Shown one piece after another: positions 10,390-28,056 of a stretch of DNA of 58,837 nucleotides; position 1 is the stretch's first letter; every line of letters starts with the position of its first letter. Below the pieces are notes generated by a model, which was not told the DNA's origin, did no database searches, and was given only the letters and a program-made list of their open reading frames with translations. Both the position numbers and the translations under genes were made by a program. Source of the stretch: Thermoanaerobaculia bacterium (lineage in GTDB: Bacteria > Acidobacteriota > Thermoanaerobaculia > UBA5066); NCBI GenBank assembly GCA_041482235.1, contig JBGPDK010000003.1, forward strand, positions 1-58,837, written 5' to 3'.

Positions 10390-10850
10390 CAATTCTCTCC
10401 TTCTCTCCAAAGCGTCGTGACGTACTCGTCCGAAAAGTCCGAGCTTTCGATCGTCACGGGCTCGAACGGAAGTTCCGGGCCGTAGATCTCCCACGCCCCG
10501 ATGTCCCGCGCATGGCCTTTCTGCACCGAGACGATGACGGTCAGGAGCCCCTCCCAGGCGTGCGTCCTGTCCGTGTCGGAAGGGCGCGCGGGATGGTCCG
10601 GATGACTGTGCCAGAAGCCAAGAAGGCGGAGGCCCTGCGAGTCGGCCTCGCGCTCGGCGCGCAGGTAGTCCCCCGGAGAGACCTCGAACCTCACGCGCGG
10701 ACTGCCTTTCTCCGTGTTGGGGAGAAGAAGCGTGACGCGCACATGGTCTCTCTCGCCCAGGAGCGCGCCGCAGCCCTCGTACGGATACGCGGCCGACGCC
10801 GCGCGGGCGATGTCCTCGAGGACGGCGCGATCGAAGCGAATGGCGCTCAC
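10389..10850 (-). CDS. JAMM/MPN+ (M67, Mec-like) metallopeptidase
   Basis: YPYEGCG and HSHPDHPARPSDTD (HxHx7Sx2D). GTG 10850 overlaps the upstream stop. Confidence 0.92.
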   Translation of the reverse strand: MSAIRFDRAVLEDIARAASAAYPYEGCGALLGERDHVRVTLLLPNTEKGSPRVRFEVSPGDYLRAEREADSQGLRLLGFWHSHPDHPARPSDTDRTHAWEGLLTVIVSVQKGHARDIGAWEIYGPELPFEPVTIESSDFSDEYVTTLWREGEN

Positions 10851-11446
10851 AGCCCGAGGTGCCGCGCAACCTCTTCCGGGCTCGCGAGGAGCGCTCCGGC
10901 CTGCCGCTTCTTCACGCGATTGTCGGGGCCCGTGACGAGGAAGTAGGGCACGCCGCGGATGCTCATCTTCCTGGCCCACGCACCCGAGCTGTCGACGAGG
11001 ACCTCGCGTACGATCCTGCGGGCCATCTCCGCGCATTTAGGCATCGCATCCATGCCCACGACGAACGTGGTCTCGATGCCGCGTTCCTTCACGAGGTCGG
11101 CGAGCGCGCGATCGCCCGGGAGCGACTCCTTGCACGGGCCGCACCACGGCGCGACGTAGATGATGAGGCAGCCCTTCGCGCCGGCGCACTGCCCGGCGGG
11201 AGCATCGCCCGCCGGAGTTCCGTCCGCGGCAAGGCGCGGCAGCGAGGCTGCCCCGAGCCTGGTCGGCGCGCGCATCAGCAGCCAGGCTGCGGCCGCGAGG
11301 GCGACGAGCCCGAGGAGCACCGTTCGCCCCGGCGGACCCATCGGGGCTGCGGGGCGTCCCGTGTCGAAGCGCGACGGCGGTGCGGGCCGCGGTGTGGGGG
11401 CGTATCCGGGCGGGGGTGACTGGGTTCCCATGCCGCTCATTCTCAC
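10847..11446 (-). CDS. Membrane-anchored thioredoxin-fold protein (TlpA-like); start uncertain
   Basis: One N-terminal hydrophobic helix, APWCGPC active site, cis-Pro GVP. Confidence 0.75.
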   Translation of the reverse strand: MRMSGMGTQSPPPGYAPTPRPAPPSRFDTGRPAAPMGPPGRTVLLGLVALAAAAWLLMRAPTRLGAASLPRLAADGTPAGDAPAGQCAGAKGCLIIYVAPWCGPCKESLPGDRALADLVKERGIETTFVVGMDAMPKCAEMARRIVREVLVDSSGAWARKMSIRGVPYFLVTGPDNRVKKRQAGALLASPEEVARHLGL

Positions 11447-11487: not shown

Positions 11488-12423
11488 ATGGAAGAAGGTC
11501 GAAACTCCCTCCGCGTCCTCACCTTCGCGCCGAAGCCGGGCGATGCGCCGCGCGTGGGCGCTCTCGCGGCGAACGGGCGGATCGTCGATCTGGGAGCGGC
11601 CGCCTCGAAGGCGAAAACGAAGCTCTCCTTCGACTCCGCGCGGATGGTCTCGCTCATCGCCGCCGGCGAACCGGCGCTCGCCGAGGTGCGAGCCCTCCTC
11701 CTGTCGGCTCCACTGGACGGCCCCCGCGCCGAGGACGTGAGGCTTCTCGCCCCGATTCCCGACCCCGTGAGAAACGTCTACGCCGTCGGGTGGAACTACC
11801 TGGACCACTTCGAGGAGGGGAAGGGACTTCGCGACGCGAGCCAGACGCTGCCGGAGCACCCCGTGTTCTTCACGAAAGCCACGCACGCCGTGAACGGCCC
11901 CTATGACCCGATCCCTTACGACCCGAGGGTCTCGACGAGCATCGACTGGGAATGCGAGCTGGCCGTCATCATCGGGCGGCGCGGGCGCAACATCCCCGAA
12001 GAGAAGGCGCTGGAATTCATCTTCGGATTCTCCGTGATCAACGACACGACGGCGCGCGACCTCCAGCAGAAGCAGCACGGGGGGCAGTGGTTCAAGGGGA
12101 AAAGCCTCGACGGGCACGGCCCGATGGGGCCGTGGATCGTGACGGCCGCCGGGTTCGACTACGACAACCAGCACCTCGTGACACGCGTCAACGGCGTCGT
12201 GAAGCAGGACGCGAGCACGCGCCAGATGTACTTCAAGGTGCCCCGCATCGTGTCCGAGCTTTCTCTCGGCCTCACGCTCGAGCCGGGCGACATCATCGCG
12301 ACGGGAACGCCGCCCGGCATCGGCTACGCGCGCAAGCCGCCGGAGTTCCTGAAGCCCGGTGACGTCATGGAGACCGAGATCGCCGGGATCGGGCTACTCC
12401 GAAACGAGATCGTGGCCTCTTGA
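11488..12423 (+). CDS. Fumarylacetoacetate hydrolase family protein
   Basis: VGWNYLDH, DWECELAVIIG, NDTTARDLQ, WFKGKS, PGDIIATGTPPG. Confidence 0.92.
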   Translation: MEEGRNSLRVLTFAPKPGDAPRVGALAANGRIVDLGAAASKAKTKLSFDSARMVSLIAAGEPALAEVRALLLSAPLDGPRAEDVRLLAPIPDPVRNVYAVGWNYLDHFEEGKGLRDASQTLPEHPVFFTKATHAVNGPYDPIPYDPRVSTSIDWECELAVIIGRRGRNIPEEKALEFIFGFSVINDTTARDLQQKQHGGQWFKGKSLDGHGPMGPWIVTAAGFDYDNQHLVTRVNGVVKQDASTRQMYFKVPRIVSELSLGLTLEPGDIIATGTPPGIGYARKPPEFLKPGDVMETEIAGIGLLRNEIVAS

Positions 12424-12496
12424 CGGCGGCGCGCCTGCGAGATGAAGCATCTGCCTCAGGGAATTTCCGGGGGTCTCCTGCGTTATGCTGCTGCTG

Positions 12497-12874
12497 ATGA
12501 GTCGCTCCGGGCCCTCCGTTTTCATCCGCCTTTCGGCCGCCGCGTTCGCGGTTGTGCTCCTTTCGGTCCCGGCTCTCGCGGCTCTCCGGCCCGTGAATAC
12601 GGCTTCGTGCTGCCGGCCGGCGGGAGCGCCGATGGGATGCTGCGTGGGCGGAAACGTTCCGGACTCCTCCGCGAATTGCTGCCGCCCGTCCGCGCCCGAG
12701 GAGGCCGCGCCTTCGCTTCAATCGTCCGCCCCGGCCCACGCGGCGCCTCCCGCGATCCTCCTTGACCAGCCGCTTCCGCCTCTCGCGGCCTCCACCGCGG
12801 GGCCGGCGCGCCGCGTCGCGCCGCGCGCCCGATCGGCTCCTCTCTTTCTCCTTTTCGCGGTCTTTCTGGTCTGA
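12497..12874 (+). CDS. Cys-rich secreted leader ORF upstream of the cus-like operon
   Basis: Signal-peptide-like N-terminus, three CC pairs, Pro/Ala-rich linker, hydrophobic C-terminus RSAPLFLLFAVFLV. ATG 12497 is preferred because TATGCT (12484-12489) lies 7 nt upstream. Confidence 0.7.
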   Translation: MSRSGPSVFIRLSAAAFAVVLLSVPALAALRPVNTASCCRPAGAPMGCCVGGNVPDSSANCCRPSAPEEAAPSLQSSAPAHAAPPAILLDQPLPPLAASTAGPARRVAPRARSAPLFLLFAVFLV

Positions 12875-12942
12875 TCCCTCGTCGAACAGTTCTCCCGCCG
12901 CCCGAAAGGGCGGCTCCGTGAGGCATTTCGACGAGGTGATCA
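12872..12942 (+). promoter_or_regulatory. RBS-sequestering RNA stem-loop between the leader ORF and the cusC-like gene
   Basis: TGATC+CCTCGTCGAA (12872-12886) pairs with TTCGACGAGG-T-GATCA (12927-12942), covering the SD GAGG at 12933-12936. Inner hairpin GCCGCCC-GAAA-GGGCGGC at 12897-12914. Confidence 0.75.
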
Positions 12943-14307
12943 ATGCTGGCGAGAGAAGAAGAAAAGAGAAGATTTCTTAGAGGGTCCCGAGCTGCCGTTG
13001 GACTTGTGCTTTTCCTTTGGTGTCTTGGTTCGGCGAGCGCCCGTGGAGGAGAGACCTCCCCGGGTTCGGCCGCCGCCGAGGTCGAGGCGCTCGTGGCCGA
13101 GGCGCTCGCGAAGAACCCGGATCTCGCCGCGGCGCGCCAGGAGGCCGCCGCCGCCCGTGCGGGCGTCGCTCCGGCGGGCGCGCTGCCGGACCCGATGTTG
13201 AGCGTCACCTACGAGAACGACGGAACGAGCCTGTCTCTGGGCGTCGAGCCGATGACGCGGCTCTCCTTCATGGCTCAACAGGCGTTCCCGTTTCCGGGAA
13301 AGCTCGCGCTCGCCGAGAAGGTCGCGAGCGCCGATGCGGGGCGCGGCGCCACGCGGCCCGAACGCGTGGCCCTGACGCTGGAAGCCGCCGTGCGGCGCGC
13401 CTACGCCGATCTCCTCGAGGCACGCGAGGACCTGAGACTCGTGGACGAGCAGATCGCGACCTGGCGCGACATCGAGGAGGACGTCCGCGTCCGCTATTCG
13501 GCGGGGCTGGGAACGCAGCAGGACGTCCTTCGCGCCCAGGGCGAGAGGACGCGCCTCCTCCAGCAGCGGCGCCGCGACGAGGCTGCAGAGAAGACCGCCG
13601 TGAGCGCCCTGAACCAGCTTCTGTACCGAACCGCGCAGAGCCCCCTTCCGACGAAAAAGGAGCTGACTCCGGGTGCTCTCCCCGGCGTCCCCGCGGGGCG
13701 CGAGGTCGTCGAGGAGGCGCTGAAGGCCACGCCCGAGCTGAAAGACGCGGCGCTCGCGGTGGACCGCGCGAAGCTGTCGGTGGATCTGGCGAGGCACAAT
13801 CTCAAGCCCGACTTCGTGGCTTCGGCCGCCTACATGAACCGCGGAGGGCTTCCTCTCATGTGGTCCGCCGGCGTCGGCGTGTCGATCCCGCTCTGGGCCG
13901 GAAAGAAGCAGAGGCCGCTGATCGTCGAAGCCGAGGCGCTCGGGGAGGCGGCCTCGGCGACCGAAGCCTCGCTGCGCCGCCAGGTGGAGGCACGAACCGA
14001 GGAAAGGTTGATCCGCCTCGAGCAGATTGCGGACGAGGCGAAGCTCGACGCCGAAGGCGTGCTCGTGCAGGACAGGCTGTCCGTCGACTCGGCTCTCGCG
14101 AGCTATCGTACCGGCTCGGTACCCTTCGTCACCGTGCTGGAGGCGCTCGGCACGTACTTCATCGACCGCCGCGCTGCGGTCTCGCGCCTCGCCGGGTTCA
14201 TTCGCGCCGAGGCCGACCTTCGGGAGTTCTCCCTGGACCGCTCCGGGTCCGCCGCGATGGCGTCTTCCCGCAGCCCCTCCTTCAGCGCCGCCGCATCCAG
14301 AATGTAG
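12943..14307 (+). CDS. TolC-family outer-membrane factor (CusC/CzcC-like)
   Basis: Signal peptide, ALAKNPDL, LPDPML, QAFPFPGKL, YRTG; first gene of an RND trio. Confidence 0.9.
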   Translation: MLAREEEKRRFLRGSRAAVGLVLFLWCLGSASARGGETSPGSAAAEVEALVAEALAKNPDLAAARQEAAAARAGVAPAGALPDPMLSVTYENDGTSLSLGVEPMTRLSFMAQQAFPFPGKLALAEKVASADAGRGATRPERVALTLEAAVRRAYADLLEAREDLRLVDEQIATWRDIEEDVRVRYSAGLGTQQDVLRAQGERTRLLQQRRRDEAAEKTAVSALNQLLYRTAQSPLPTKKELTPGALPGVPAGREVVEEALKATPELKDAALAVDRAKLSVDLARHNLKPDFVASAAYMNRGGLPLMWSAGVGVSIPLWAGKKQRPLIVEAEALGEAASATEASLRRQVEARTEERLIRLEQIADEAKLDAEGVLVQDRLSVDSALASYRTGSVPFVTVLEALGTYFIDRRAAVSRLAGFIRAEADLREFSLDRSGSAAMASSRSPSFSAAASRM

Positions 14308-14318
14308 GAAGGACGGAC

Positions 14319-15776
14319 ATGAAAGCACCGCGTCTCGCCCGAGTCCTCCTCGCCTTTGCCGTGGCTGCCGCGCTTCCGCCGGCCGTCGCCCTCCTGACGG
14401 GATGCGCGCCCAAGGGAGCGGACACCTCCGCGGCGAAGAAGTACCAGTGCCCCATGCATCCTCACATCATCCGCGACAAGCCCGGGGATTGCCCCATTTG
14501 CGGCATGAAACTGGTCAAGATCGAAACGCACGCTCAGAGCGGCGCCCCGGAGGGAACGACTCCGGGAGCGGCCGGGGTCCCCCGCCGGATCCTCTTCTAC
14601 CGCTCCCCCATGAACGCCACCGAGACCTCGCCCGTACCGAAGAAGGACTCGATGGGAATGGACTTCGTGCCGGTCTACGCGGACGAAGCGGAGAGCGCCG
14701 CCGGAAGTCCGGAGGGGCTCGCGCCGGTGACGATCGACGCGGCGAAGAGACAGCTCCTCGGGCTGAAGACAGTGGCGGTCAAGCGTGCCCCGTTCGAGAC
14801 GTCGATTCGGACCACCGGCCGGGTGGCTGCGGACGAGCGGCTGATCCATCACGTCCACACGCGCTTCGAAGCGTTCGTCGAGCACGTGACCGCCGACTTC
14901 ACCGGCAAGTACGTCACCAAGGGCGAAGCGCTCGCGTACCTTTACAGCCCCGAGCTCTACGCGACCCAGCAGGAGTATCTCCTCGCTCTCAGGGCGTCGA
15001 AGTCTCTCGGAACGTCCGGGGTCTCCTCGGTCGCGCAGGGAGGCCAGGATCTGCTGTCCGCCGCGCGCCAGCGGCTGATCCTCTGGGAGATCACGCCGGC
15101 CGACATCGAGCGGATCGAGAAGAACGGCCAGCCGATCCGCGCCATTCCGGTCTATGCGCCGATCTCGGGCTACGTGACCGGCCGCACCGCCTATCACGGC
15201 ATGAAGGTGATGCCTGCCGACACGCTGTTCGACATCCTCGACCTCTCGCACGTCTGGGTTCTCGCGGACGTCTACGAGTACGAGTTGCCGCGCCTGACCG
15301 TGGGGCAGCGCGCGACGGTGACGCTCTCGTACTGGCCCGGGCGCGTCTGGAACGGCAAGGTGACGTACGTTTACCCGGCCGTCGACGAGAAAACGCGGAC
15401 CGTGAAGGTGCGCGTCGAGCTCGACAACCCGAAGGGAGAGCTGAAGCCCGAGATGTTCGCCGACGTCACGGTTCACGGTTCGGCTCGGGACGTCCTCCAG
15501 GTTCCGGACGACGCGATCCTGGAGAGCGGGACGCGGAACATCGTCTTCGTGTCCGAGGCCGAAGGGAAACTGTCGCCGCGCGAGGTCTCGGTGGGCGATC
15601 ACGGCGCCGGGGCCGTGGAGATCCGCGACGGGCTGAAGGAGGGCGACGTGGTCGTGCTCGGCGCGAATTTCCTCGTCGATTCCGAATCGCGCCTCAAGGC
15701 CGCGATCTCGGCCATGACGTCGGCCGGCAAGAAGGAGGCGCCGGCACCCCTGCCAGACGCCGGGCAGAAGCGCTGA
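14319..15776 (+). CDS. cusB: CusB-like RND periplasmic adaptor with N-terminal heavy-metal-binding modules
   Basis: Lipobox LTGC; YQCPMHP..CPICGMKL; YRSPMN..KKDSMGMDFVPVY; LYSPEL, LKPEMF, FLVDSES. ATG 14319 is in the frame of ORF 13017..15776. Confidence 0.88.
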   Translation: MKAPRLARVLLAFAVAAALPPAVALLTGCAPKGADTSAAKKYQCPMHPHIIRDKPGDCPICGMKLVKIETHAQSGAPEGTTPGAAGVPRRILFYRSPMNATETSPVPKKDSMGMDFVPVYADEAESAAGSPEGLAPVTIDAAKRQLLGLKTVAVKRAPFETSIRTTGRVAADERLIHHVHTRFEAFVEHVTADFTGKYVTKGEALAYLYSPELYATQQEYLLALRASKSLGTSGVSSVAQGGQDLLSAARQRLILWEITPADIERIEKNGQPIRAIPVYAPISGYVTGRTAYHGMKVMPADTLFDILDLSHVWVLADVYEYELPRLTVGQRATVTLSYWPGRVWNGKVTYVYPAVDEKTRTVKVRVELDNPKGELKPEMFADVTVHGSARDVLQVPDDAILESGTRNIVFVSEAEGKLSPREVSVGDHGAGAVEIRDGLKEGDVVVLGANFLVDSESRLKAAISAMTSAGKKEAPAPLPDAGQKR

Positions 15777-15786
15777 GGAGGATGGA

Positions 15787-18700
15787 ATGAGCGCCTCCCC
15801 GCACGCCGAGCCCGGCCTCATCCAGAAGGTGATCCGTTTCTCGGCCGAGAACAAGTATCTCGTCGTCGCGATTTACGCGATCGTCATCGTTCTAGCGGTC
15901 GGCGTCATTCGGCGCACGCCGCTCGACGCCATCCCCGACCTCTCGGACACGCAGGTCATCATCTATTCCCGCTGGGACAGGAGCCCCGACGTCCTCGAGG
16001 ATCAGGTCACGTATCCGATCGTGACGTCGCTTCTCGGGGCGCCGAAGGTGAAGACGATCCGGGGCTTTTCGGATTTCGGCTTCTCGTACGTCTACGTCAT
16101 CTTCGAGGACGGCACCGACATCTACTGGGCGCGGTCGCGCGTCCTCGAGTACCTGTCGAAGATCCAGTCGCGCCTCCCCGCGGGCGTGAAGACGGAGCTC
16201 GGGCCCGACGCCACGAGCGTCGGCTGGGTCTACCAGTACGCCCTCGTCGACGAGAGCGGGAAGAACGCGACCGACGACATCCGCTCGTATCAGGACTGGT
16301 TCCTGAGGTATGCGGTGCAATCCGTGGCCGGCGTCGCGGAGGTCGCGAGCGTGGGCGGCTCCCAGAAGCAGTACCAGGTGACGCTGGACCCGAACACGCT
16401 CTCGGCGTACGGCCTGCCTCTCGAGTCCGTCGTCGAGGCGATCCGCAAGAGCAACAACGAGATCGGCGGGCGCCTCATCGAGTTCTCGGGGCGCGAATAC
16501 ATGGTTCGGGGCCGCGGCTATCTCAAGACGGCCCTGGACATCGGCAAGATCGTCGTCAAGACGAACGAGAAGGGGACGCCGTTGACGGTCGGCGACGTCG
16601 GGCGCGTGTCGCTCGGTCCCGAGATCAAGAGGGGGATCGCCGACCTCGACGGCAAGGGAGACGCCGTGGGCGGTATCGTCGTGATGCGCAGCGGCGAGAA
16701 CGCTCTCGACGTCATCGAGCGCGTGAAGGCCCGTCTGAAGGAGATCGAGCCGTCGCTTCCGCCGGGCGTGAAGATCGTTCCGACGTACGACCGGTCGGAC
16801 CTGATCAAGCGCTCCGTCGACACGCTGAGGTCGAAGCTGATCGAGGAGATCATCGTCGTCTCGATCGTCATCCTCGTGTTCCTCTGGCACGTTCCGAGCG
16901 CGATCGTCCCGATCGTGACGATTCCGATCTCCGTCGTCCTCGCGTTCATTCCGTTCAACGCGATGGGCCTGAACATCAACATCATGTCGCTGGGCGGCAT
17001 CGCGATCTCCATCGGAATCCTCGTGGACGGCGCGATCGTGGAGGTCGAAAACGCGTATCACAAGCTGCAGCAGTGGAACGACGGCGGCCGGCCCGGCGAC
17101 TTTCACAAGGTCCGGCTCGCGGCGCTCATGGAGGTCGGCCCCTCCGTGTTCTTCTCGCTCCTCGTCATCGCCGTCGCGTTCCTGCCGGTCTTCACGCTCG
17201 TCGACCAGGAAGGGCGGCTCTTCAGGCCGCTCGCGTTCTCGAAGAACCTCGCGATGGCGATCGCGGCGTTCCTCGCCATCACCCTCGATCCGGCGATCCG
17301 GATGATGTTCGCGCGCATGGACGGCTTCTCCTTCCGCCCGAAGTGGCTCGCCTGGATCGTCAACCAACTCGCGGTGGGGAAGTACTACGCCGAGGAGAAG
17401 CATCCGATCAGCGTCGTCCTTCACCGGCTCTACGAGCGGCCCTGCCGCGCCGTGCTCCGCCATCCGAAAACGACGATCGCGATCGCCCTCCTCGTGATGC
17501 TCTCCACGGTCCCGGTCTTTCTGAAGCTCGGCTCCGAGTTCATGCCGCCGCTCTACGAAGGCTCGATTCTCTACATGCCGACGACCCTGCCAGGGATCTC
17601 GGTGACCGAGGCCGAGCACCTGCTGCAGGTGCAGGACCGCGTCCTGAAGTCGTTCCCGGAAGTCGAGCGGGTCTTCGGCAAGGCGGGCCGGGCCGATTCC
17701 TCGACCGATCCGGCGCCGTTCTCGATGATGGAGACGACGGTCATCCTCAAGCCCGAGGCGGAATGGCGGAAGAAGGAACGCTGGTACTCATCCTGGGCGC
17801 CGGAGTGGCTGGCCGGATTCTTCCGCCACGCGTGGGACGACCACATCTCCCACGAGGAGCTCGTGGACGAGATGGACCGCGCGCTGAAGATCCCCGGGAC
17901 GACGAACGCATGGACGATGCCCATCAAGAACCGCATCGACATGCTCTCCACGGGGATCAAGACGCCCATCGGCATCAAGGTCTTCGGTTCGGACCTCAAG
18001 GAGATCGAACGGATCGGCGTGGAAGTCGAGGCGGCCGTGAAGGCCGTTCCGGGCACCCGTTCGGCCTTCGCCGAACGGGTCGCTGGCGGGTACTTCGTCG
18101 ACTTCGACCTGGACCGCGACGCGCTCGCCCGGTACGGCCTCACCGTCGACGACGCGAACGCCGTCATCATGACGGCGATCGGAGGCGAGACGGTCACGAC
18201 GATCATCAAGGGCCGGGAACGCTACTCGGTCAACGTGCGTTACTCGCGCGAGCTGCGCGAAGATCTCGACCTGCTCGCCCGCGTCCTTGTCCCGACGATG
18301 TCCGGCGCCCAGGTGCCGCTCGGCCAGCTCGCCGCGATCCATCAGGTGCGGGGGCCGGCAATGATCCGCAACGAGAATGGTCTCCTCTCGGGCTACGTGT
18401 ACGTGGACTTCGACACCTCCAAGGAGGACGTCGGCGGCTACGTCGAGAAAGCGAAGAAAGCCGTCGCCGAGAACGTCAAGGTGCCACCGGGCTATTCGCT
18501 CCAATGGAGCGGCCAGTACGAGAACATGATTCGCGTCAAGGAGCGCCTGAAGGTCGTCATCCCCGTGACGCTCGTCCTCATCTGGCTGCTGATGTACATG
18601 AACACGAAATCGGCCATGAAGACGATGATCGTCCTCCTCGCCGTGCCGTTCTCGATCATCGGCGCCGTGTGGTTCCTGTACCTTCTCGGCTACAACCTGT

Positions 18701-19104
18701 CCATTGCCGTCTGGGTCGGGATGATCGCGCTCATGGGACTCGACGCCGAAACCGGCATCTTCATGCTCCTGTTTCTCGACCTCGCCCACGCGGAGGCGAA
18801 GGAGAAGGGTCTGCTCCGGAATCGCGCCGACCTGATCGAATCCATCATCCACGGGGCCGTCAAGAGAGTGAGGCCGAAGGCCATGACCGTCTGCGCGGCA
18901 TTTTTCGGGCTGATTCCGATCATGTGGTCGACGGGCGCGGGCGCCGACCTGATGAAGCGCATCGCGGCGCCGATGGTGGGCGGCCTCGTGACCTCGTTCG
19001 CGCTGGAGCTTCTCGTCTACCCGGCCGTCTACATGCTCTGGAAGGAGCGCGAGCTGCCGGGAGCGCAGGGGCCTTCCTTTGTCGTCCCTGCAATCACGAC
19101 CTGA
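15787..19104 (+). CDS. cusA: CusA-type heavy-metal RND efflux pump (Cu+/Ag+)
   Basis: DAIPDLSDTQVII, LGPDATSVGW; Met triad contexts EFMP, SMMET, WTMPI; RVRPKAMT. Confidence 0.93.
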   Translation: MSASPHAEPGLIQKVIRFSAENKYLVVAIYAIVIVLAVGVIRRTPLDAIPDLSDTQVIIYSRWDRSPDVLEDQVTYPIVTSLLGAPKVKTIRGFSDFGFSYVYVIFEDGTDIYWARSRVLEYLSKIQSRLPAGVKTELGPDATSVGWVYQYALVDESGKNATDDIRSYQDWFLRYAVQSVAGVAEVASVGGSQKQYQVTLDPNTLSAYGLPLESVVEAIRKSNNEIGGRLIEFSGREYMVRGRGYLKTALDIGKIVVKTNEKGTPLTVGDVGRVSLGPEIKRGIADLDGKGDAVGGIVVMRSGENALDVIERVKARLKEIEPSLPPGVKIVPTYDRSDLIKRSVDTLRSKLIEEIIVVSIVILVFLWHVPSAIVPIVTIPISVVLAFIPFNAMGLNINIMSLGGIAISIGILVDGAIVEVENAYHKLQQWNDGGRPGDFHKVRLAALMEVGPSVFFSLLVIAVAFLPVFTLVDQEGRLFRPLAFSKNLAMAIAAFLAITLDPAIRMMFARMDGFSFRPKWLAWIVNQLAVGKYYAEEKHPISVVLHRLYERPCRAVLRHPKTTIAIALLVMLSTVPVFLKLGSEFMPPLYEGSILYMPTTLPGISVTEAEHLLQVQDRVLKSFPEVERVFGKAGRADSSTDPAPFSMMETTVILKPEAEWRKKERWYSSWAPEWLAGFFRHAWDDHISHEELVDEMDRALKIPGTTNAWTMPIKNRIDMLSTGIKTPIGIKVFGSDLKEIERIGVEVEAAVKAVPGTRSAFAERVAGGYFVDFDLDRDALARYGLTVDDANAVIMTAIGGETVTTIIKGRERYSVNVRYSRELREDLDLLARVLVPTMSGAQVPLGQLAAIHQVRGPAMIRNENGLLSGYVYVDFDTSKEDVGGYVEKAKKAVAENVKVPPGYSLQWSGQYENMIRVKERLKVVIPVTLVLIWLLMYMNTKSAMKTMIVLLAVPFSIIGAVWFLYLLGYNLSIAVWVGMIALMGLDAETGIFMLLFLDLAHAEAKEKGLLRNRADLIESIIHGAVKRVRPKAMTVCAAFFGLIPIMWSTGAGADLMKRIAAPMVGGLVTSFALELLVYPAVYMLWKERELPGAQGPSFVVPAITT

Positions 19105-19125: not shown

Positions 19126-21519
19126 ATGTCGACTCTTCCGACGCTGCCTTCTTCACTGCCGGCCGGGACCGCGAAGGACCTCGTCTGCGGCATGGACGTC
19201 GACCCGGCCCGGACGAAGCATTCCACCGCTCATGAGGGCAAGGGCTACTTCTTCTGCAGCGCGGGCTGCCTCGAGAAATTCCGCCGGGAGCCCGGGAAGT
19301 ATCTGTCGGGCGGCGGTCACGAGCCGATGGAGTCGGCAGCGCCCACGGCGGCCGCGGCGCCAGCCGGCAAGGGCGTCGAGTACACGTGCCCGATGCACCC
19401 CGAGATCGTGCGGCCCTCTCCCGGCTCGTGCCCGATCTGCGGCATGGCGCTCGAACCGCGGACGATCTCGCTGGAAGACGCGCCGAATCCCGAACTCGAC
19501 GACATGAAGCGCCGGCTGCGAGTTGCCGTCGTGCTCACCGTACCGCTGCTTTTCTTCGAAATGAGCGCGATGGTGGCTCCACAGCTCGTCGGCGGAGTCT
19601 CGCCGCGCCTCGGCCTTCTCGCGCAATTGATTCTCGCGACGCCGGTCGTGCTGTGGTGCGGGAAGCCGTTCTTCGAGAGGGGATGGGCGTCCGTGAAGAC
19701 GCGCAACCTGAACATGTTCACACTGATCGCGCTCGGGACGGGCGCGGCTTACACATACAGCCTGGCGAAAACGGCCGAGTTCCTTATTCCCTTTCTAAGC
19801 AGATCTTCTTCTTCGGTCTCTTCGGCACATCCCCCAACGCACGACGTCTACTTCGAAGCGGCGGCGGTCATCACGACGCTCGTCCTTCTCGGGCAAGTTC
19901 TGGAGCTCCGCGCCCGCGAGAAGACGGGCGGCGCGATCCGGGCGCTCCTCGGCATGGCGCCGAAGACGGCGCGGCTCGTGAACGCGGACGGTGCCGACGA
20001 AGACGTTCCGATCGAGCGCCTGAAGAGCGGAGACCGGGTGCGCGTGCGCCCGGGCGAGCGCGTTCCCGTCGACGGCCGCGTCGTCGAGGGTGAGAGCGCG
20101 GTCGACGAATCCATGATTACCGGCGAGCCGGTTCCGGTCGCCAAGAAGGCAGGCGATGCCGTGACGGGCGCGACGGTGAACGGGAACGGCGCCCTCGTCA
20201 TCGAGGCCCTGAAGGTGGGCGGCGACACCGTCCTCGCGCAAATCGTGCGGATGGTGTCCGAGGCCCAGCGGAGCCGCGCGCCGATCCAGCGGCTCGCGGA
20301 CAAGGTCGCCGCCGTCTTCGTTCCCGTCGTGATTCTCGTCGCGGCGGTCACCTTCGCGATCTGGGCGCTCGTCGGGCCCGAGCCGCGCCTGGTTCACGCG
20401 CTCGTGAACGCCGTCGCCGTCCTCATCATCGCCTGCCCGTGCGCTCTGGGCCTCGCGACGCCGATGTCCGTCATGGTCGCGATGGGCCGCGGCGCGGCGG
20501 CGGGAGTTCTCTTCAAGAACGCGGCCGCGCTCGAACGGCTCGAAAAGGTGGACACGCTCGTCGTGGACAAGACGGGCACGTTGACAGAGGGGAAACCGAA
20601 GATCGTTTTAGCAAAACCCGTGGCTGGGTTTCAGGAGGATGCGCTAGTTCGATTCGCCGCTAGCTTAGAAAGGGGGAGTGAGCATCCCCTCGCCGCCGCG
20701 GTCGTCTCGGCGGCGGAGGAGCGTCATCTCCCGCTGGCGCCCCCGAGTGGGTTTCGCGCGATTCCGGGTAAGGGTGCGCAGGCGCGCGTCGAGGGCCGCG
20801 TCGTCGCCGTCGGCTCTCTTTCACTATTCGAAGAGAATTCTCTTCCTCTTTCGTTTCCATTTTCCGCGGATGTTCTCGCCGAGGCCGAGGCCGAACGTGC
20901 TCGTGGCCACACGGTTCTCTTCGTTTCGGTCGACGGCAAGCCAGCCGGATTCCTCGCCGCGGCGGATCCGATCAGGCCTTCCACGCGCGCGGCGATCGCC
21001 GCGATGCATGACCTCGAGATTCGTGTCGTGATGCTCACGGGCGACGCGAAAGCGACCGCGGAGGCCGTGGCGAAGGAGCTTGGGATCGACGAGGTCGTCG
21101 CGGGCGTGCTTCCGGCCGGGAAGGCCGAGACCGTGGCGCGGCTGAAGAGCGAGGGCCGGATCGTCGCGATGGCGGGCGACGGCATCAACGACTCGCCCGC
21201 GCTGGCCGCGGCCGACGTGGGCATCGCGATGGGGACGGGGACCGACGTGGCCATCCAGAGTGCGGGGATCACGCTCGTCGGCGGCGACCTCTCGGGTCTC
21301 CTGCGCGCGCGGCATCTCAGCCGCGCGACGATCCGGAACATCCGGCAGAACCTCTTTTTCGCGTTCGCCTACAACTCGATCGGGGTCCCGCTGGCGGCCG
21401 GCGTTCTCTACCCCTTCTTCGGCCTTCTCCTCTCTCCGATCATCGCGAGCGCCGCGATGAGCCTGAGCTCGGTCTCCGTCATCGCGAACGCCCTGAGGCT
21501 CCGGCGAACCGCCTTGTGA
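19126..21519 (+). CDS. copA: Cu(I)-translocating P1B-type ATPase with YHS and heavy-metal-binding N-terminal domains
   Basis: DLVCGM..FCSAGC, YTCPMHP..CPICGM, TGE, CPC, DKTGT, HP, GDGIND, YN and MSLSS. Confidence 0.95.
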
Positions 21520-21541: not shown

Positions 21542-21592
21542 TGATTGTTTGGAGGTGCCCAGAGGCACCGCATGCTCGAGGAGGCCCCGGAG

Positions 21593-21769
21593 ATGGCAAA
21601 AGACCCTGTTTGCGGCATGACCGTCGACGACAAAGCCCCGCTGAAAAGCACGCATGCGGGAAAGAACTACGTGTTCTGCTCCCCTTCCTGCAAAGCGAAG
21701 TTCGACAAGGAGCCGGGCCGGTACGCGCCCCCTGCCGGGGGAGAAGCCCTGCGAGAAAAGCGGGCCTGA
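21593..21769 (+). CDS. Small stand-alone YHS/TRASH domain protein (58 aa)
   Basis: MAKDPVCGMTVD...YVFCSPSCKAKFDKEPGRY; GAGGAGG upstream. Confidence 0.88.
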   Translation: MAKDPVCGMTVDDKAPLKSTHAGKNYVFCSPSCKAKFDKEPGRYAPPAGGEALREKRA

Positions 21770-25286: not shown

Positions 25287-25782
25287 GGGGTGGCCCCCGA
25301 CCATTATCGCCCGATTCGGGGGCGGTTCAGGGGACGAGACGAGCTCCTCGCGGAGCTTTTCGGATCGAGGGTTGGAAGCTCTGGAAGTGCCTCCAAAACA
25401 GAGAGTTAATGAAGGAGTGGACCTGATGATTCTTCTGCATCATGGAAAGTGCGACACATCGCGAACCATAGGTTTTCCATTGGACGCGAATACAACTCGC
25501 GAAGAGGCTCTCGAAACGAGGAGTTAAGGAGCGATCGGATTCTCGACTCCATGATGCTTCTGCACCAATGCAATCGCGGGCCGTAAACGATAGGTTATCT
25601 CTCCGGAGATCTAACACATTCGGCCTCCAGGCGACTTGAGCGAGAGGACTCATGGATGTGGACACCCGTGTGGGAGGTGCTTCAAAAGAGGAAGAAGTCG
25701 TCCTTGAATTTTCCGACGCTTCGTGTACGCGCACCGGACGGATCCACTCAAATGGTTACATTTTCTTGCAAAGGATGGTGTT

Positions 25783-28056
25783 ATGTTGAAAAGAACACAG
25801 TTGGCGAATGCAGGCCTCATATTCCTCGGAGTTATTCTCCTCGGGGCCTTCGGAGGCGCCCGCGCGAGCACGCTTGTTACCCAGACGGCGCTGCCGGGGG
25901 ACTGTATCCCGCAGTTCAAGGTCGAGATGCCGGTGTTCGGACCGGCGGGCGATATGCCGAGGGTCGATGCGTTCCGGCATCCCCTGCTCACCGTCAAGAT
26001 GAAAGAGGTCGGCCAGACGGTCCTGCCCGATCCCCTGAAAGTGAAGTATCCCGCCAAGGACAGTTCTGGTCACCCCTGCCCACACGTCGTTTTTCGGGAC
26101 ACCACCGTGTGGGCCTACGAGACGTCGGACTCGCTCACGAAGAAGGTTCTCGGCCCCGCGAACTGGCCCGGGGTGACGCTCGAGGCGAGAAGGTTCGTTC
26201 CGACGGTCGTGAAGTACGAGAACGAATTGCCGGCCTTCGCCGGCGGACTGGGGCTGCAGGGGCTTCTGAGCGTGGACCAGACGATCCACTGGGCCGACCC
26301 TCTGAACATCATGTGCGCCCCAATTGACTGCACGAAATCGGAGAACGCAGGCAATGCGTGCTGCAAACCGTTCGTCGGACGGCCGCCCACCGTGCCGCAC
26401 CTCCATGGCGCCGAGGTGCCGTCGGCCTTCGACGGCAGTCCGACCGCATGGTTCACCGCGGACGGCGGAAAGGGGCCGGGATACAGCACACTCGACCATC
26501 CCGGCGACGGCAAGGCGATCTATCTCTACAACAACACGCAGGAGCCCGGGACCCTGTGGTTCCACGACCACGCGCTCGGCTCGACGCGCACGAACGTCTA
26601 CAGCGGCCTGGCGTCCTTCTACTTCCTCCGTGACGCGTCGAGGGAGCCGAAGAACCTCCCGAGCGGCCCCTACGAGATCGAGATGGCTCTCCAGGACCGC
26701 CAGTTCGACACGCGCAGCCAGCTGTTCTTCCCCGACGGCAGCGGCGACGATGTGGCCACGAGCAACCTGAACGGACCGCCCACGAACCCGGACGTGCACC
26801 CCTTCTGGAACCCCGAGTTCATCGGCGACGTGGCCATCGTGAACGGCGCGCCCTGGCCGTTCCTCGAGGTGGAGCCGCGGCGTTACCTCTTCCGGCTGCT
26901 GGACGGCTCGAACGCGCGTGTGTACAACCTGAAGTTCGGCGCGGCCGCGGTTTATCAGGTCGGCGCGGACGACAACTACCTCGACACGCCGGTCAAGGTC
27001 GACACGGTGTTCATCGCGCCCGGCGAGCGCGCCTACGCGATCGTGGACTTCTCGAACCTGCGCGGTCAGAACGTCGTGGTCACGAATGATGCCCCGATCC
27101 CGTTCCCGGACGGCGCGGTGCCGGGCGTGGACCAGCCGGGCATGGTCAGGATCATGCAGTTCCGGGTCAGCTCGAGGCCGGTGTCGGACGCGAGCTGCAA
27201 CCCCGCCGCCGGGCAGTGCAAGCGCCCGACGCCGGTCCTTCGCCTCACCGATGGCAACGGGAACATCACCCCCGGCGTGAAAGTCGACAAGGTCAGGCAG
27301 CTCGTCCTCAAGGAGCACGCGGGGCCCGGAGGTCCGCTCGAGGTCCTGCTCAACAACACGAGGTGGGATGGAACAGCGGCGCCCAACGTCGAATCTGTTT
27401 TCCCGGACGGCATCAGCGAGCAACCGCGTGTCGGATCGATCGAGCTCTGGGAGATCATCAACGAGACAGGCGATGCCCACCCGATCCACACGCACCTCGT
27501 CCAGTTCGAGATCCTGAACCGGGAGTCGTTCGACTCCGACGGGACGCAGGGGTCGAGCAACCCCTCGGGATTCGGGTATATCGGTATCGAGAATGACGAT
27601 CCGTCGTTGTCGATTCCCGGCGAGTGGCCCAAGGCGTTCGGTTCACCTCTGCCGGCTCAATGCGACGGTGTCGATCCCGTGAACCCCTGCCCCGGCTACG
27701 GCCCGCCGCTGCCCTATGTCATCAACGGGCGGACGACGAATCTGCCGAACGGCCAGCACGGAGTCCCGGTCGTGGGGGGCAACCCGGAGATCCACCCCTA
27801 TCTCCTCGGCGATGCCCAGCCGCCTGCACCTGAGGAGGCCGGCCTGAAGGACACGGCGAAGTCCAACCCCGGCCAGGTGATGAGGATCCTGGCGCGGTGG
27901 GCGCCGACGAGCACCCCGCTGACCCCGAACAAGTCGCTGGCGGGCACCAACCTCTACCCCTTCGATCCCTCCAGTGGTCCCGGTTATGTCTGGCACTGCC
28001 ACATCCTCGACCACGAGGACAACGAGATGATGCGTCCGTACAAGGTCAAGAATTAG
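25783..28056 (+). CDS. Multicopper oxidase (CotA/bilirubin oxidase-like), secreted
   Basis: HLHG, WFHDH, HPIHTH, WHCHILDHEDNEMM; signal peptide starting at ATG 25783. Confidence 0.93.
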   Translation: MLKRTQLANAGLIFLGVILLGAFGGARASTLVTQTALPGDCIPQFKVEMPVFGPAGDMPRVDAFRHPLLTVKMKEVGQTVLPDPLKVKYPAKDSSGHPCPHVVFRDTTVWAYETSDSLTKKVLGPANWPGVTLEARRFVPTVVKYENELPAFAGGLGLQGLLSVDQTIHWADPLNIMCAPIDCTKSENAGNACCKPFVGRPPTVPHLHGAEVPSAFDGSPTAWFTADGGKGPGYSTLDHPGDGKAIYLYNNTQEPGTLWFHDHALGSTRTNVYSGLASFYFLRDASREPKNLPSGPYEIEMALQDRQFDTRSQLFFPDGSGDDVATSNLNGPPTNPDVHPFWNPEFIGDVAIVNGAPWPFLEVEPRRYLFRLLDGSNARVYNLKFGAAAVYQVGADDNYLDTPVKVDTVFIAPGERAYAIVDFSNLRGQNVVVTNDAPIPFPDGAVPGVDQPGMVRIMQFRVSSRPVSDASCNPAAGQCKRPTPVLRLTDGNGNITPGVKVDKVRQLVLKEHAGPGGPLEVLLNNTRWDGTAAPNVESVFPDGISEQPRVGSIELWEIINETGDAHPIHTHLVQFEILNRESFDSDGTQGSSNPSGFGYIGIENDDPSLSIPGEWPKAFGSPLPAQCDGVDPVNPCPGYGPPLPYVINGRTTNLPNGQHGVPVVGGNPEIHPYLLGDAQPPAPEEAGLKDTAKSNPGQVMRILARWAPTSTPLTPNKSLAGTNLYPFDPSSGPGYVWHCHILDHEDNEMMRPYKVKN

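Follow-up and report, generated by a model that had tools for sequence, protein, structure and literature searches.

To our knowledge, CutF and CruR are the only exported metal-sensing leaders dissected so far. Both are described as DUF2946 proteins of Proteobacteria with proline-based arrest motifs (PMC9973294, PMC9426467). CutF of Rhodobacter capsulatus is the exported first cistron of cutFOG and carries a Cys motif; a stem-loop with an anti-SD sequence shields the SD of the next gene (PMC9973294; bioRxiv 10.1101/2025.02.05.636593). The most common downstream neighbour of CutF-like genes is an OEP (CusC/CzcC/SilC) (PMC9973294). CopL of Xanthomonas and Stenotrophomonas belongs to the CutF-like network and is set apart from the locus studied here, on its description, by its sequence cluster and by its copper-oxidase target. 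In CruR (Bp2923 of Bordetella pertussis), a 45-residue spacing between CXXC and RAPP is conserved within one or two residues, and the addition of five residues abolishes regulation (PMC9426467). In SecM-secA of Escherichia coli, ribosome occupancy near the 3' end of an exported leader opens a stem-loop that hides an SD, and how long the ribosome dwells depends on the force that pulls the nascent chain (bioRxiv 10.1101/2025.02.05.636593).

We analysed a window of 58,837 nucleotides from a Thermoanaerobaculia bacterium (Acidobacteriota), in which a small Cys-rich ORF precedes a set of heavy-metal efflux genes. The leader ORF has the following parts:

12497-12874, plus strand: leader ORF with homologues, 125 aa plus TGA, from the in-frame ATG at 12497.
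12497-12580, plus strand: Sec-type signal peptide with a predicted cut after ALA (n-region, h-region and AxA inspected in alignments).
12608-12682, plus strand: Cys cluster CC-x8-(M-x-)CC-x11-CC, the putative periplasmic metal- or thiol-sensing part.
12683-12814, plus strand: Pro/Ala-rich linker, or 'ruler', whose length is kept in alignments and whose sequence is not; AlphaFold2 predicts no structure.
12815-12871, plus strand: conserved 19-residue C-terminal tail VAPRARSAPLFLLFAVFLV, with invariant residues encoded by varied codons.

The genes downstream are as follows:

12943-14307, plus strand: tolC/cusC-like outer-membrane efflux gene, the one proposed to be gated (Pfam OEP, 2.4e-34).
12951-12972, plus strand: purine-only tract over tolC codons 3-10, seen in codon usage.
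14319-15776, plus strand: cusB-like membrane-fusion gene with an N-terminal heavy-metal-binding domain (Pfam HlyD_D23, 1.6e-79; HMBD, 1.4e-15).
15787-19104, plus strand: CusA/CzcA-type heavy-metal RND pump gene (TIGR00914, 1051 bits).
19126-21519, plus strand: copA-like copper-type P1B ATPase gene with YHS and HMBD domains (Pfam and NCBIfam profiles).

We first concentrated on the leader itself. The mechanical ORF covers 12485-12874 (129 aa), and its TGA stop occupies 12872-12874. The initial annotation had described an ORF of about 125 aa with a signal-like N-terminus, three CC pairs and a Pro/Ala linker, all of which we recovered in the sequence and its translation. The N-terminus is signal-peptide-like (MSRSGPSVFIRLSAAAFAVVLLSVPALA, followed after the predicted cut by AL), and all full-length relatives show, by eye in the alignments, a basic n-region, 12-15 hydrophobic residues and an AxA-like site. 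The three CC pairs of the window leader lie at residues 42-43, 52-53 and 65-66 (129-aa numbering). They do not all hold across the family, where the first CC varies and invariance is limited to the middle CC and one Cys of the last pair. The conserved cysteines of the alignments form adjacent pairs (M-x-CC, CC) or C-x-C, and neither CXXC nor CxxxC is conserved among them.

Homologues of the leader fall into 23 clear clusters. Of 28 additional genomes of the genus, a first profile detected it in 20; four of five genomes that scored as negative carry a divergent copy. With a broader profile, matches were found in 30 of 401 genomes of the class Thermoanaerobaculia, distributed over 7 of 133 sampled genera. 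The dN/dS is 0.24 in the tail and 0.43 in the linker. Residues R-14, A-12, P-11 and L-10 are invariant in all 36 genus-level sequences, and each uses three to five synonymous codons. Hence, selection acts on the peptide and not on the RNA alone. The leader ORF is a real gene under selection.

The window leader ends in the tail RSAPLFLLFAVFLV, directly followed by the stop. The tail consensus is P-L-[FHY]-x-L-[FYH]-[AS]-x-[FL]-L-[VI], within a longer pattern V-x-P-R-A-R-S-A-P-L-[FH]-L-L-[FY]-[AS]-V-[FL]-L-[VI]-stop. The hydrophobic tail of the initial annotation is correct for the window leader, but not uniformly so for its distant relatives (e.g. ...APTLALLETFRN). We recognised no known arrest motif in the tail. 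PP is absent from the last 15 residues of all 36 genus-level sequences, and so is RAPP, as had been noted for the window leader; one distant relative, L100 (...SPPPLFSLHSSLLI), does have PP in this segment. We also considered the tail as a membrane anchor or C-terminal sorting signal and discarded this reading: basic residues precede the hydrophobic run and none closes it, the run spans only about 12 residues, and in one genus of the family (g2) it is interrupted by charges.

The distance between the last Cys and the C-terminus, which the initial annotation had not mentioned, is 61-64 residues in 36 of 36 genus-level and 18 of 18 divergent sequences (54/54). The linkers themselves differ in sequence, and on the N-terminal side the distances are variable. 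This ruler favours a sensing model, by analogy with the spacing that CruR is described as requiring.

The profile searches were consistently negative. The window leader has no match in Pfam at E ≤ 0.01 or in NCBIfam at E ≤ 1. DUF2946 matches none of 24 family members at E ≤ 10 and none of 10 divergent members at E ≤ 1, and a search with PF11162 over the six translated frames of the genome that includes the window returned nothing at E ≤ 10. The 10 divergent members gave two chance-level NCBIfam matches (E of 0.83 and 0.067), to unrelated families and far under the curated cut-offs. A full-text search for the HYC_CC_PP-type name suggested earlier retrieved no paper. Protein Atlas leads to DUF8199, DUF6769 and DUF6660 were rejected (scores of at most 0.94, without HMM support), the nearest clusters being unnamed. 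By sequence comparison, the leader belongs to a separate, undescribed family, apart from CutF. The initial annotation had proposed the same logic built from different parts, and the leader, with no DUF2946, Pfam or NCBIfam match, agrees with this.

The similarities with CutF, as far as it is described, are in the architecture. In both cases the first cistron is small, exported and endowed with a Cys motif, the intergenic region is shorter than 100 nt and contains an anti-SD stem-loop, and a conserved C-terminal segment adjoins the stop codon. In both, the stretch between metal motif and C-terminus is of a length that would bring the motif to the periplasmic face of SecY. The differences are in the parts. 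The leader lacks DUF2946 similarity, and it has CC pairs or CxC where CutF has CxxxC. In none of the 36 genus-level sequences do the last 15 residues contain PP or PPP, so the CutF-like filter, as published, would have discarded these leaders. The ruler measures 61-64 residues to the C-terminus here and 45 to the motif in the accounts of CruR and CutF. The host belongs to the Acidobacteriota, translation of the leader probably starts on a leaderless mRNA, and the target is a whole efflux operon, whereas that described for CutF is a multicopper oxidase. CruR is described as encoded by an upstream ORF and as carrying an export signal, a Cys motif and a C-terminal arrest motif, and its type of ruler recurs in the leader. 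Its motifs are CXXC and RAPP, and the leader has no RAPP. It is also described as acting by Rho-dependent termination, with copper relieving the arrest and an uptake target, whereas here an SD is masked and the target is efflux. An exported leader whose 3'-end occupancy would open an SD-hiding stem-loop also recalls SecM-secA, but SecM, as reported, responds to secretion activity and not to a ligand in the periplasm, has an arrest motif ending in RAGP and has no Cys cluster.

We then analysed the region between the leader and tolC, whose ATG is at 12943-12945. The fold of 12840-12960 contains these elements:

12872-12942, plus strand: intergenic hairpin from the leader stop to the tolC ATG, supported by folding, conservation and covariation.
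12872-12886 with 12927-12942, plus strand: outer stem of 15 bp, with T12937 bulged.
12891-12896 with 12918-12923, plus strand: middle stem.
12897-12914, plus strand: inner GC hairpin with a GAAA loop and no U-tract.
12877-12880 with 12933-12936, plus strand: anti-SD CCTC paired with the tolC SD GAGG.

A 15-bp stem with one bulge covering the SD GAGG had been proposed from the sequence, and this fold agrees with it to the base; the GAAA-capped hairpin without a U-tract lies inside, also as described. T12872-A12886 pairs with T12927-A12942, such that the leader TGA opens the stem and the stem ends at the tolC ATG. The minimum free energy of 12840-12960 is -53.5 kcal/mol (z = -3.64), and none of 200 dinucleotide shuffles folds as well. 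We examined 50 distinct intergenic regions and found the hairpin in every one, and the 37 distinct genus-level sequences share one fold. Indels put the outer arms out of register in a plain MAFFT alignment, and RNAalifold accordingly recovers the inner hairpin alone; the compensatory pairs that it reports there are CG to UA (7 sequences) and CG to GC (4 sequences). We therefore built a covariance model of the hairpin from 12 gap-free sequences. In the resulting alignment of 38 sequences, 92.3% of the cells are paired, and sliding the partners lowers this to 39-52%. Both positions vary in 10 of the 30 pairs. The covariation score of 0.156 (against 0.108) is reached by none of 500 shuffles, with the qualification that these covariation counts rest partly on the model-fitted alignment and on related sequences.

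The covariance model scores distant relatives weakly (8.6-22 bits), and these were therefore analysed by single-sequence folding. Their arm sequences differ (ACCTCGGGA/TCCCGAGGT; AGCTCC/GGAGGAGC), and the pairing of anti-SD with SD is kept in 10 of 10 divergent loci. Intergenic lengths are 68-78 nt in 49 tabulated regions and 69-78 nt in the divergent loci. Averaged over the 49 regions, the SD is paired with the 23-nt segment that begins at the stop codon with a probability of 0.88, and of 0.40 after shuffling, a control that discriminates only moderately because C-rich RNA often pairs with GAGG. The leader stop codon is always inside the 5' arm, and the anti-SD begins 1-5 nt past it in 47 of 50 regions. 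The tolC SD is buried in a hairpin that shows both conservation and covariation. The initial annotation held that its model would fall if the stem were not conserved in homologues; since the stem is both conserved and covarying, the model stands on this point.

Other identities for the hairpin were searched. A scan of both strands of 12380-13100 against Rfam 15 was negative at E ≤ 1. A dispersed repeat of the REP or MITE kind was rejected because the 3.33-Mb genome has a single copy of the 91-nt element. An intrinsic terminator was likewise rejected: a terminator scan found no such site, and the CTTTTC that follows the inner hairpin is lost in divergent loci. As a side observation, assembled contigs of relatives from RNA libraries include sequence from the 3' end of the leader and from the intergenic region; they are uninformative on starts, ends and transcription. 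The purine tract of tolC encodes Arg as AGR in 106 of 138 cases, compared with 72 of 848 in background genes. A duplex of this tract with the pyrimidine-rich leader tail is predicted on thermodynamic grounds, with 21.7 expected pairs against 14.6 when the tail is shuffled. In a fixed register it shows no covariation: 64.3% of its cells are paired against 63.5% in shuffles, and 172 of 500 shuffles reach its covariation score.

Upstream of the leader, two further elements were found:

12443-12464, plus strand: conserved DNA element TGAAGCATCTGCCTCAGGGAAT with an imperfect dyad TGAAGC-N4-GCNTCA, identified by frame-independent nucleotide conservation in the main group.
12484-12489, plus strand: -10-like hexamer TATGCT (family TAnnnT), 7 nt before the ATG at 12497.

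The distance from the conserved element to the hexamer is constant, at 39-40 nt, in main-group loci. A TAnnnT hexamer lies 5-9 nt before an ATG or GTG in 26 of 33 distinct upstream regions, mostly 7-8 nt before the inferred start, and four loci of a divergent subgroup have, by eye, TAGAAT 7 nt before the start. There is no SD-like sequence before the leader start. The position of the hexamer implies an mRNA that is probably leaderless or nearly so, and the element at 12443-12464 is probably a promoter or activator site. We considered whether the dyad could be the operator of a regulon and could show none: a pattern search of the window's own genome gives 18+11 matches, compared with 15+11 for the reversed control, and the only three near-copies (1-2 mismatches) are in unrelated contexts.

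None of the 29 window ORFs scanned against Pfam is a classical Cu regulator. The initial annotation was right about this absence, but the argument that it drew from it in favour of its model is weak, because the conserved promoter-proximal element makes transcriptional control, by a factor encoded elsewhere, likely as well. Each of the 8 divergent loci tested has an OEP gene immediately after the leader, and a gene for a periplasmic thioredoxin-like protein is found on the opposite strand, at most 1.5 kb upstream of the leader, in 19 of 30 distinct upstream regions.

The arrangement of these parts suggests how the locus could work. When the leader is untranslated, the intergenic RNA of about 70 nt would fold, and the anti-SD, 3 nt past the stop, would pair with the tolC SD. 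With the SD paired and the stem reaching the AUG, tolC would therefore be closed to free ribosomes. A ribosome at the leader UGA would take the whole 5' arm into its mRNA channel and free the SD. The inner GC hairpin would stay folded as a spacer, so that a second ribosome could load at tolC with the first still on the stop. The output of tolC would then be set by how often, and for how long, ribosomes stay at the end of the leader. Such obligatory translational coupling between leader and tolC is in our view likely.

The metal response would be added to this coupling through the nascent chain. The leader would be exported co-translationally, and during decoding of the stop codon its 19-residue tail would sit in the ribosome exit tunnel. 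At termination the Cys cluster, 61-64 residues upstream, would just have cleared the translocon on its periplasmic side. The thiol/disulfide state of the cluster, or its binding of metal, could alter the pull on the chain and hence the dwell time at the stop codon, such that higher periplasmic Cu(I) or Ag(I) would lead to longer dwelling and more efflux pump. We put the chances of a modulation by metal or thiol state, which is argued by analogy with the known leaders, at about even. The leader, the hairpin and tolC may thus form one translational gate for a tolC-cusB-cusA-copA heavy-metal efflux operon, with metal sensing via the nascent chain, a reading that we find evenly balanced as a whole. 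The gate would probably resemble CutF while being assembled from unrelated parts, and in it we infer both the metal response and the ribosome dwelling. More tentatively, and with less than even confidence, the tail could be a termination-slowing peptide independent of proline repeats. The ruler, spanning the exit tunnel and SecYEG, would link it to a CC-type sensor of Cu(I) or thiols in the periplasm, and the whole device would start from a leaderless mRNA. This would make the device an independently evolved acidobacterial nascent-chain sensor that switches a whole efflux operon without a dedicated regulator.

The main rival of the sensing model is plain structure-mediated coupling, in which the leader is a working periplasmic protein (e.g. 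a Cu(I)-binding chaperone or accessory), its nascent chain senses nothing, and any regulation is transcriptional through the upstream element. A stop in the 5' arm and an SD in the 3' arm suffice for this, and the structural data fit it equally well. The conserved Cys cluster and the syntenic periplasmic thioredoxin-like gene suit a working metal-binding protein, the conserved promoter-proximal element points to transcriptional control, and the tail has neither a known arrest motif nor the polyproline or RAPP of the known examples. On the other hand, the mature leader is predicted by AlphaFold2 to be non-globular (pLDDT of 56, pTM of 0.17), with the tail alone helical. Its linker has a fixed length (61-64) and a divergent sequence, a constraint that the flexible tether of a finished protein does not need. 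Finally, peptide-level conservation is strongest in the last 19 residues, a segment that is not a membrane anchor. We regard plain coupling without sensing as unlikely on balance, albeit a serious competitor.

The sensing model must also be weighed against control of transcription as in CruR, where arrest or release of the ribosome would decide termination before tolC, by Rho or weakly at the inner hairpin, with SD masking being secondary. CruR offers a precedent, since it is described as a Cys-motif leader that is exported, has a conserved ruler and works via Rho (PMC9426467), and within the genus a CTTTTC comes after the inner GC hairpin. But this short T-run is lost in divergent loci and the scan found no terminator-like site. 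The intergenic region, at 68-78 nt and nearly all paired, leaves little free C-rich RNA for Rho, and what the divergent loci conserve is the pairing of anti-SD with SD. Such a mechanism is therefore very improbable. A last rival takes the ORF as a by-product of high G+C and the hairpin as a chance palindrome or as an element of RNA stability or processing. It has in its favour the many long spurious ORFs of this 68% G+C window and a leader GC3 (0.785) only modestly above that of alternative frames, but is hardly credible given a frame and protein conserved over 7 genera, synonymous variation under invariant residues with dN/dS of 0.24-0.43, a stop always within the 5' arm and an anti-SD within 1-5 nt of it in 47 of 50 regions.

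The leader family shares the architecture of CutF and CruR (signal, Cys cluster, ruler and C-terminal segment) together with an anti-SD hairpin that starts from the stop, and none of their sequence. It does so in a different phylum, where it precedes, and would gate, a complete tolC-cusBA-copA efflux operon. Reporter design can draw on a ready mutational series of natural variants, 50 of the intergenic region and 54 of the leader. If the locus is only a coupling device, it provides a clean, covariation-backed case of hairpin-mediated translational coupling with class-wide conservation. If the leader senses metal, nascent-chain sensing across the membrane evolved more than once, there is a new arrest or termination-pausing sequence to study, and published searches that require PP miss whole families.

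The leader ORF lies upstream of an efflux operon in DNA of 68% G+C, with the following features around it.

10847-11446, minus strand: membrane-anchored thioredoxin-like gene with a WCGPC motif (Pfam Thioredoxin)
11488-12423: fumarylacetoacetate-hydrolase gene (Pfam), the upstream flank of the leader
12485-12874: leader ORF, ending at the stop TGA (12872-12874)
12943-14307: outer-membrane efflux gene, tolC (Pfam OEP, 2.4e-34)
12951-12972: purine-only tract AGAGAAGAAGAAAAGAGAAGA, tolC codons 3-10, right after the start
14319-15776: CusB-like fusion protein with a heavy-metal-binding domain, downstream of tolC
15787-19104: CusA/CzcA pump, downstream of the CusB-like gene
19126-21519: CopA-type ATPase, downstream of the pump
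21545-21769, plus strand: small YHS-domain protein (74 aa), directly after copA
25723-28056, plus strand: multicopper-oxidase-domain protein, 4 kb beyond the YHS protein

From tolC to the YHS protein the intergenic gaps are only 10-25 nt. Given the positions of the YHS and multicopper-oxidase-domain proteins, the copper-related island reaches past the efflux operon; the ORFs at 21.8-25.7 kb matched no family apart from one LprI domain. The initial annotation had described the leader as an ORF of about 125 aa with a signal-like N-terminus, three CC pairs, a Pro/Ala stretch and a tail, and we recover all of these. Counted from the second in-frame ATG (12497) the leader has 125 aa. Its N-terminus resembles a signal peptide when judged by eye, the CC pairs are at residues 42-43, 52-53 and 65-66, and the Pro/Ala-rich stretch is followed by the C-terminal end RSAPLFLLFAVFLV and the TGA.

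The leader is genuine and conserved as a gene, and its family is undescribed. Of 24 matches at E ≤ 0.01 in a word-seeded search of 5.8 billion proteins, 23 are clear homologues, all derived from metagenomes or MAGs and all without a name; public contigs carrying homologues come from organisms in Thermoanaerobaculia (Acidobacteriota). An exhaustive profile search of 1.84 billion representatives gave only 32 clusters at E ≤ 0.001. With our first profile, the gene was found in 20 of the 28 other genomes of the genus, in none of eight genomes from other genera of the family and in none of 24 from two other families of the order. Five of the genus genomes missed by this profile were checked: four have a TolC orthologue, preceded in every case by the leader-tolC intergenic hairpin (47-61 bits with the covariance model) and by a divergent leader, and the fifth has no TolC orthologue. 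A broader profile matched 30 of the 401 genomes sampled in the class, i.e. 7 of 133 genera: 17/18 genomes in the genus itself, 3/3 and 4/10 in two sister genera, and five genomes from three other families. No relevant Pfam or NCBIfam family matched the leader members, a few of which gave scattered, unrelated, sub-threshold matches once the cut-off was relaxed (E as high as 10), and PF11162 (DUF2946) retrieved nothing at E ≤ 10 from the window's own genome.

The peptide itself is under selection, since tail residues R-14, A-12, P-11 and L-10 are unchanging across 36 distinct sequences despite the use of 5, 3, 3 and 3 different codons, and dN/dS among 24 main-group sequences is 0.24 in the last 19 codons and 0.43 in the linker. 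One genus subgroup follows the pattern ...SCC...APMxCC...SSAGCCRLSAPEEAAPSLQS..., another ...PCxGxxxMxCCAGMGDDxAPPCHCSLNPVPPAP..., and more distant forms read ...PCCR[LI]T.P.P.... Throughout the family the middle CC, a single Cys of the last pair and, in the tail, an Arg, a Pro and a Leu never change; the first of the three CC pairs initially annotated is present in the window but is not conserved in the family. The family's most telling feature is the distance from the last Cys of the cluster to the C-terminus, hereafter the ruler. It is 61-64 residues in 36 of 36 distinct sequences from the genus (64 residues in 25 of them, 63 in 2, 62 in 6 and 61 in 3, excluding the locus L016, a frameshifted copy from an error-prone assembly) and in 18 of 18 divergent representatives. 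One of the latter, P0040, has an additional lone Cys at 50. The ruler is kept though the Pro/Ala-rich intervening sequence cannot be aligned between subgroups without compensating gaps; on the N-terminal side spacing is variable, the first Cys lying 81-100 residues from the leader end. AlphaFold2, given a 36-row alignment, leaves the mature leader without a predicted fold (mean pLDDT 56, pTM 0.17) and confines helix to tail residues 91-98 of 100. The tail is not a membrane anchor: its length is a mere 12 residues or so, it comes after the basic residues, and in one genus its sequence is APTLALLETFRN. Two genomes show frame defects: in G007 (loci L016 and L023) the reading frame is lost in the central part of the leader and an in-frame stop interrupts the start region of tolC, while in G008 (L011) a shift of one frame affects that region. 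As both were assembled in few contigs, indel errors, and not real decay, may account for these defects.

Folding of 12840-12960 reproduced, base for base, the stem proposed in the initial annotation. The outer stem joins 12872-12886 to 12927-12942 with T12937 bulged, and pairs the anti-SD CCTC (12877-12880) with the SD GAGG (12933-12936). Enclosed by it is a GC hairpin (12897-12914) with a GAAA cap. With an MFE of -53.5 kcal/mol (z = -3.64), the fold was equalled by 0/200 dinucleotide shuffles. The element occurs once in the 3.33-Mb, 267-contig genome and matched no Rfam family at E ≤ 1, no terminator and no sigma-70 consensus.

This stem is conserved and covaries in homologues. We gathered the stop-to-start regions from all loci (52 regions, 36 distinct sequences, plus that of locus L022), and in 37/37 genus-level regions the same long hairpin (-29.3 to -44.5 kcal/mol) closes the last leader codon and the TGA onto the SD and AUG. 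When 38 sequences were aligned to a covariance model built from 12 gap-free ones, standard pairs made up 92.3% of cells, against 39-52% with partners slid by 1-3 columns, both-side changes occurred in 10 of 30 pairs (a count reached by 2/500 shuffles) and in 30 cells (0/500), and the covariation score was 0.156 versus 0.108 (0/500). As the alignment is model-fitted and its members are related, these counts are biased towards the structure and overstate independence. The near-palindromic nature of the hairpin explains weak model scores on the minus strand of 12869-12945 (22-28 bits in 6 loci); these reverse-strand rows were taken out before counting. On an unfitted MAFFT alignment, RNAalifold recovered the inner hairpin, with CG-to-UA changes in 7 sequences and CG-to-GC in 4. 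Compensation is also visible by eye between loci L015 (CTGAATC/GATTCAG) and L012 (CTGATTC/GAATCAG), and between L038 (TGACG/CGTCA) and the window (TGATC/GATCA). L038 and L077 carry a variant of the module, in which the stop-proximal TGACG pairs with CGTCA at the start codon and the OEP gene lacks the purine tract and differs at its N-terminus; the L038 leader is otherwise of the main type.

Distant relatives provide the strongest evidence for conservation of the hairpin. Ten of ten loci in other genera and families have an intergenic region of 69-78 nt, an MFE structure that pairs CCTC/CTCC just past the stop with the SD of the next gene, and an inner GC hairpin. The arms are unlike in sequence (e.g. 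ACCTCGGGA/TCCCGAGGT and AGCTCC.../GGAGGAGC), the stop is sometimes TAG, and the gene that follows is an OEP in 8/8 loci tested. An SD core could be recognised in 49 of 50 distinct regions, and across these the mean probability of its pairing with the 23 nt that begin at the stop codon is 0.88. Dinucleotide shuffling of the intervening sequence lowers this value to 0.40; the control is only moderately sharp. The anti-SD starts 1-5 nt past the stop in 47/50 regions, and at 3 nt in 34.

Past the start codon, the purine tract is followed by a conserved TTTCTTAGAGGGTCCCGAG, at the same place in genus loci. Arginine is encoded by AGR in 106 of 138 cases within the tract versus 72 of 848 in background genes, and therefore selection there acts on the RNA. 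The tolC genes of distant genera have no such tract. Upstream of the leader, main-group loci (the 24 upstream regions carrying both signals) have a conserved element TGAAGCATCTGCNTCAGGAAT, at 12443-12464 in the window, and a TAnnnT hexamer (in the window TATGCT, 12484-12489) at a constant spacing of 39-40 nt from it. The hexamer precedes the leader ATG by 7-8 nt, and in the divergent subgroup a TAGAAT stands 7 nt ahead of that codon. Judged from sequence, this layout suggests a leaderless mRNA and a putative activator or sigma-factor site. Near-copies of the element occur elsewhere in the window's genome, at C151:1087 (1 mismatch) and C19:4456 (2 mismatches). Purely translational control had been argued from the absence of a nearby regulator. 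A Pfam scan of 29 window ORFs (2-33 kb) for DNA-binding domains indeed found only an HTH_17-EIIA protein, in an unrelated cluster, but the conserved element and hexamer weaken the argument.

A ribosome decoding a stop codon covers roughly the next dozen nucleotides in the mRNA channel. At the leader stop it would occupy the whole 5' arm (12872-12886), which would free the SD and AUG for as long as it remains there; the inner hairpin, with 35-40 nt between the arms, may prevent a clash between the terminating ribosome and the initiating 30S. It is probable that tolC translation depends on leader translation. We give about even chances to the full sensing model, in which the metal or thiol state is read via the nascent leader chain. 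Three features argue for something beyond plain coupling: the peptide-selected tail, which would occupy the exit tunnel at termination, the unstructured mature part and the ruler. At a distance of sixty-odd residues from the peptidyl-transferase centre, the Cys cluster would sit immediately beyond the translocon.

The thioredoxin-like gene is divergent from the leader, on the opposite strand, in 19 of 30 distinct upstream regions. Loci with it upstream include L003, L005, L006, L008, L010, L012, L014, L017, L038, L039, L041, L043, L048 and L050; the window is one of five loci in which it is far upstream, at the limit of the searched stretch, and in the window the fumarylacetoacetate-hydrolase gene separates it from the leader. 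Such a syntenic periplasmic gene is compatible with a thiol-based signal. It suits as well a leader that is a working protein, and that explanation fits equally well.

Sensing through the nascent chain has precedents. In CruR, the CXXC-RAPP spacing is 45 residues, constant to within 1-2 residues across >2000 DUF2946 proteins, and five added residues abolish copper control (PMC9426467). For CutF, it is argued that the 45-residue distance brings the Cu motif into SecY's periplasmic vestibule (PMC9973294), and the model is that metal binding or failed disulfides lower the pull on the nascent chain, prolong the pause and melt the stem (bioRxiv 10.1101/2025.02.05.636593). The ruler matches this precedent, and the CutF model transfers naturally to the leader: metal binding or absent disulfides would mean less pull, a longer pause and a melted stem. 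Apart from incidental mentions, full-text literature searches on the family names yielded the CutF and CruR papers alone. The leader is not a DUF2946 member, as it matches neither the HMM nor the CXXC/CxxxC and PP/RAPP motifs, but it shares with DUF2946/CutF-like leaders an export signal (by eye), a ruler, the operon position and an SD-shielding stem-loop. The functional design is the same as that of CutF. The published survey of CutF-like proteins admitted only sequences with a PP motif among their last 15 residues and found mostly Pseudomonadota and Bacteroidota (PMC9973294); this filter would have excluded the leader family.
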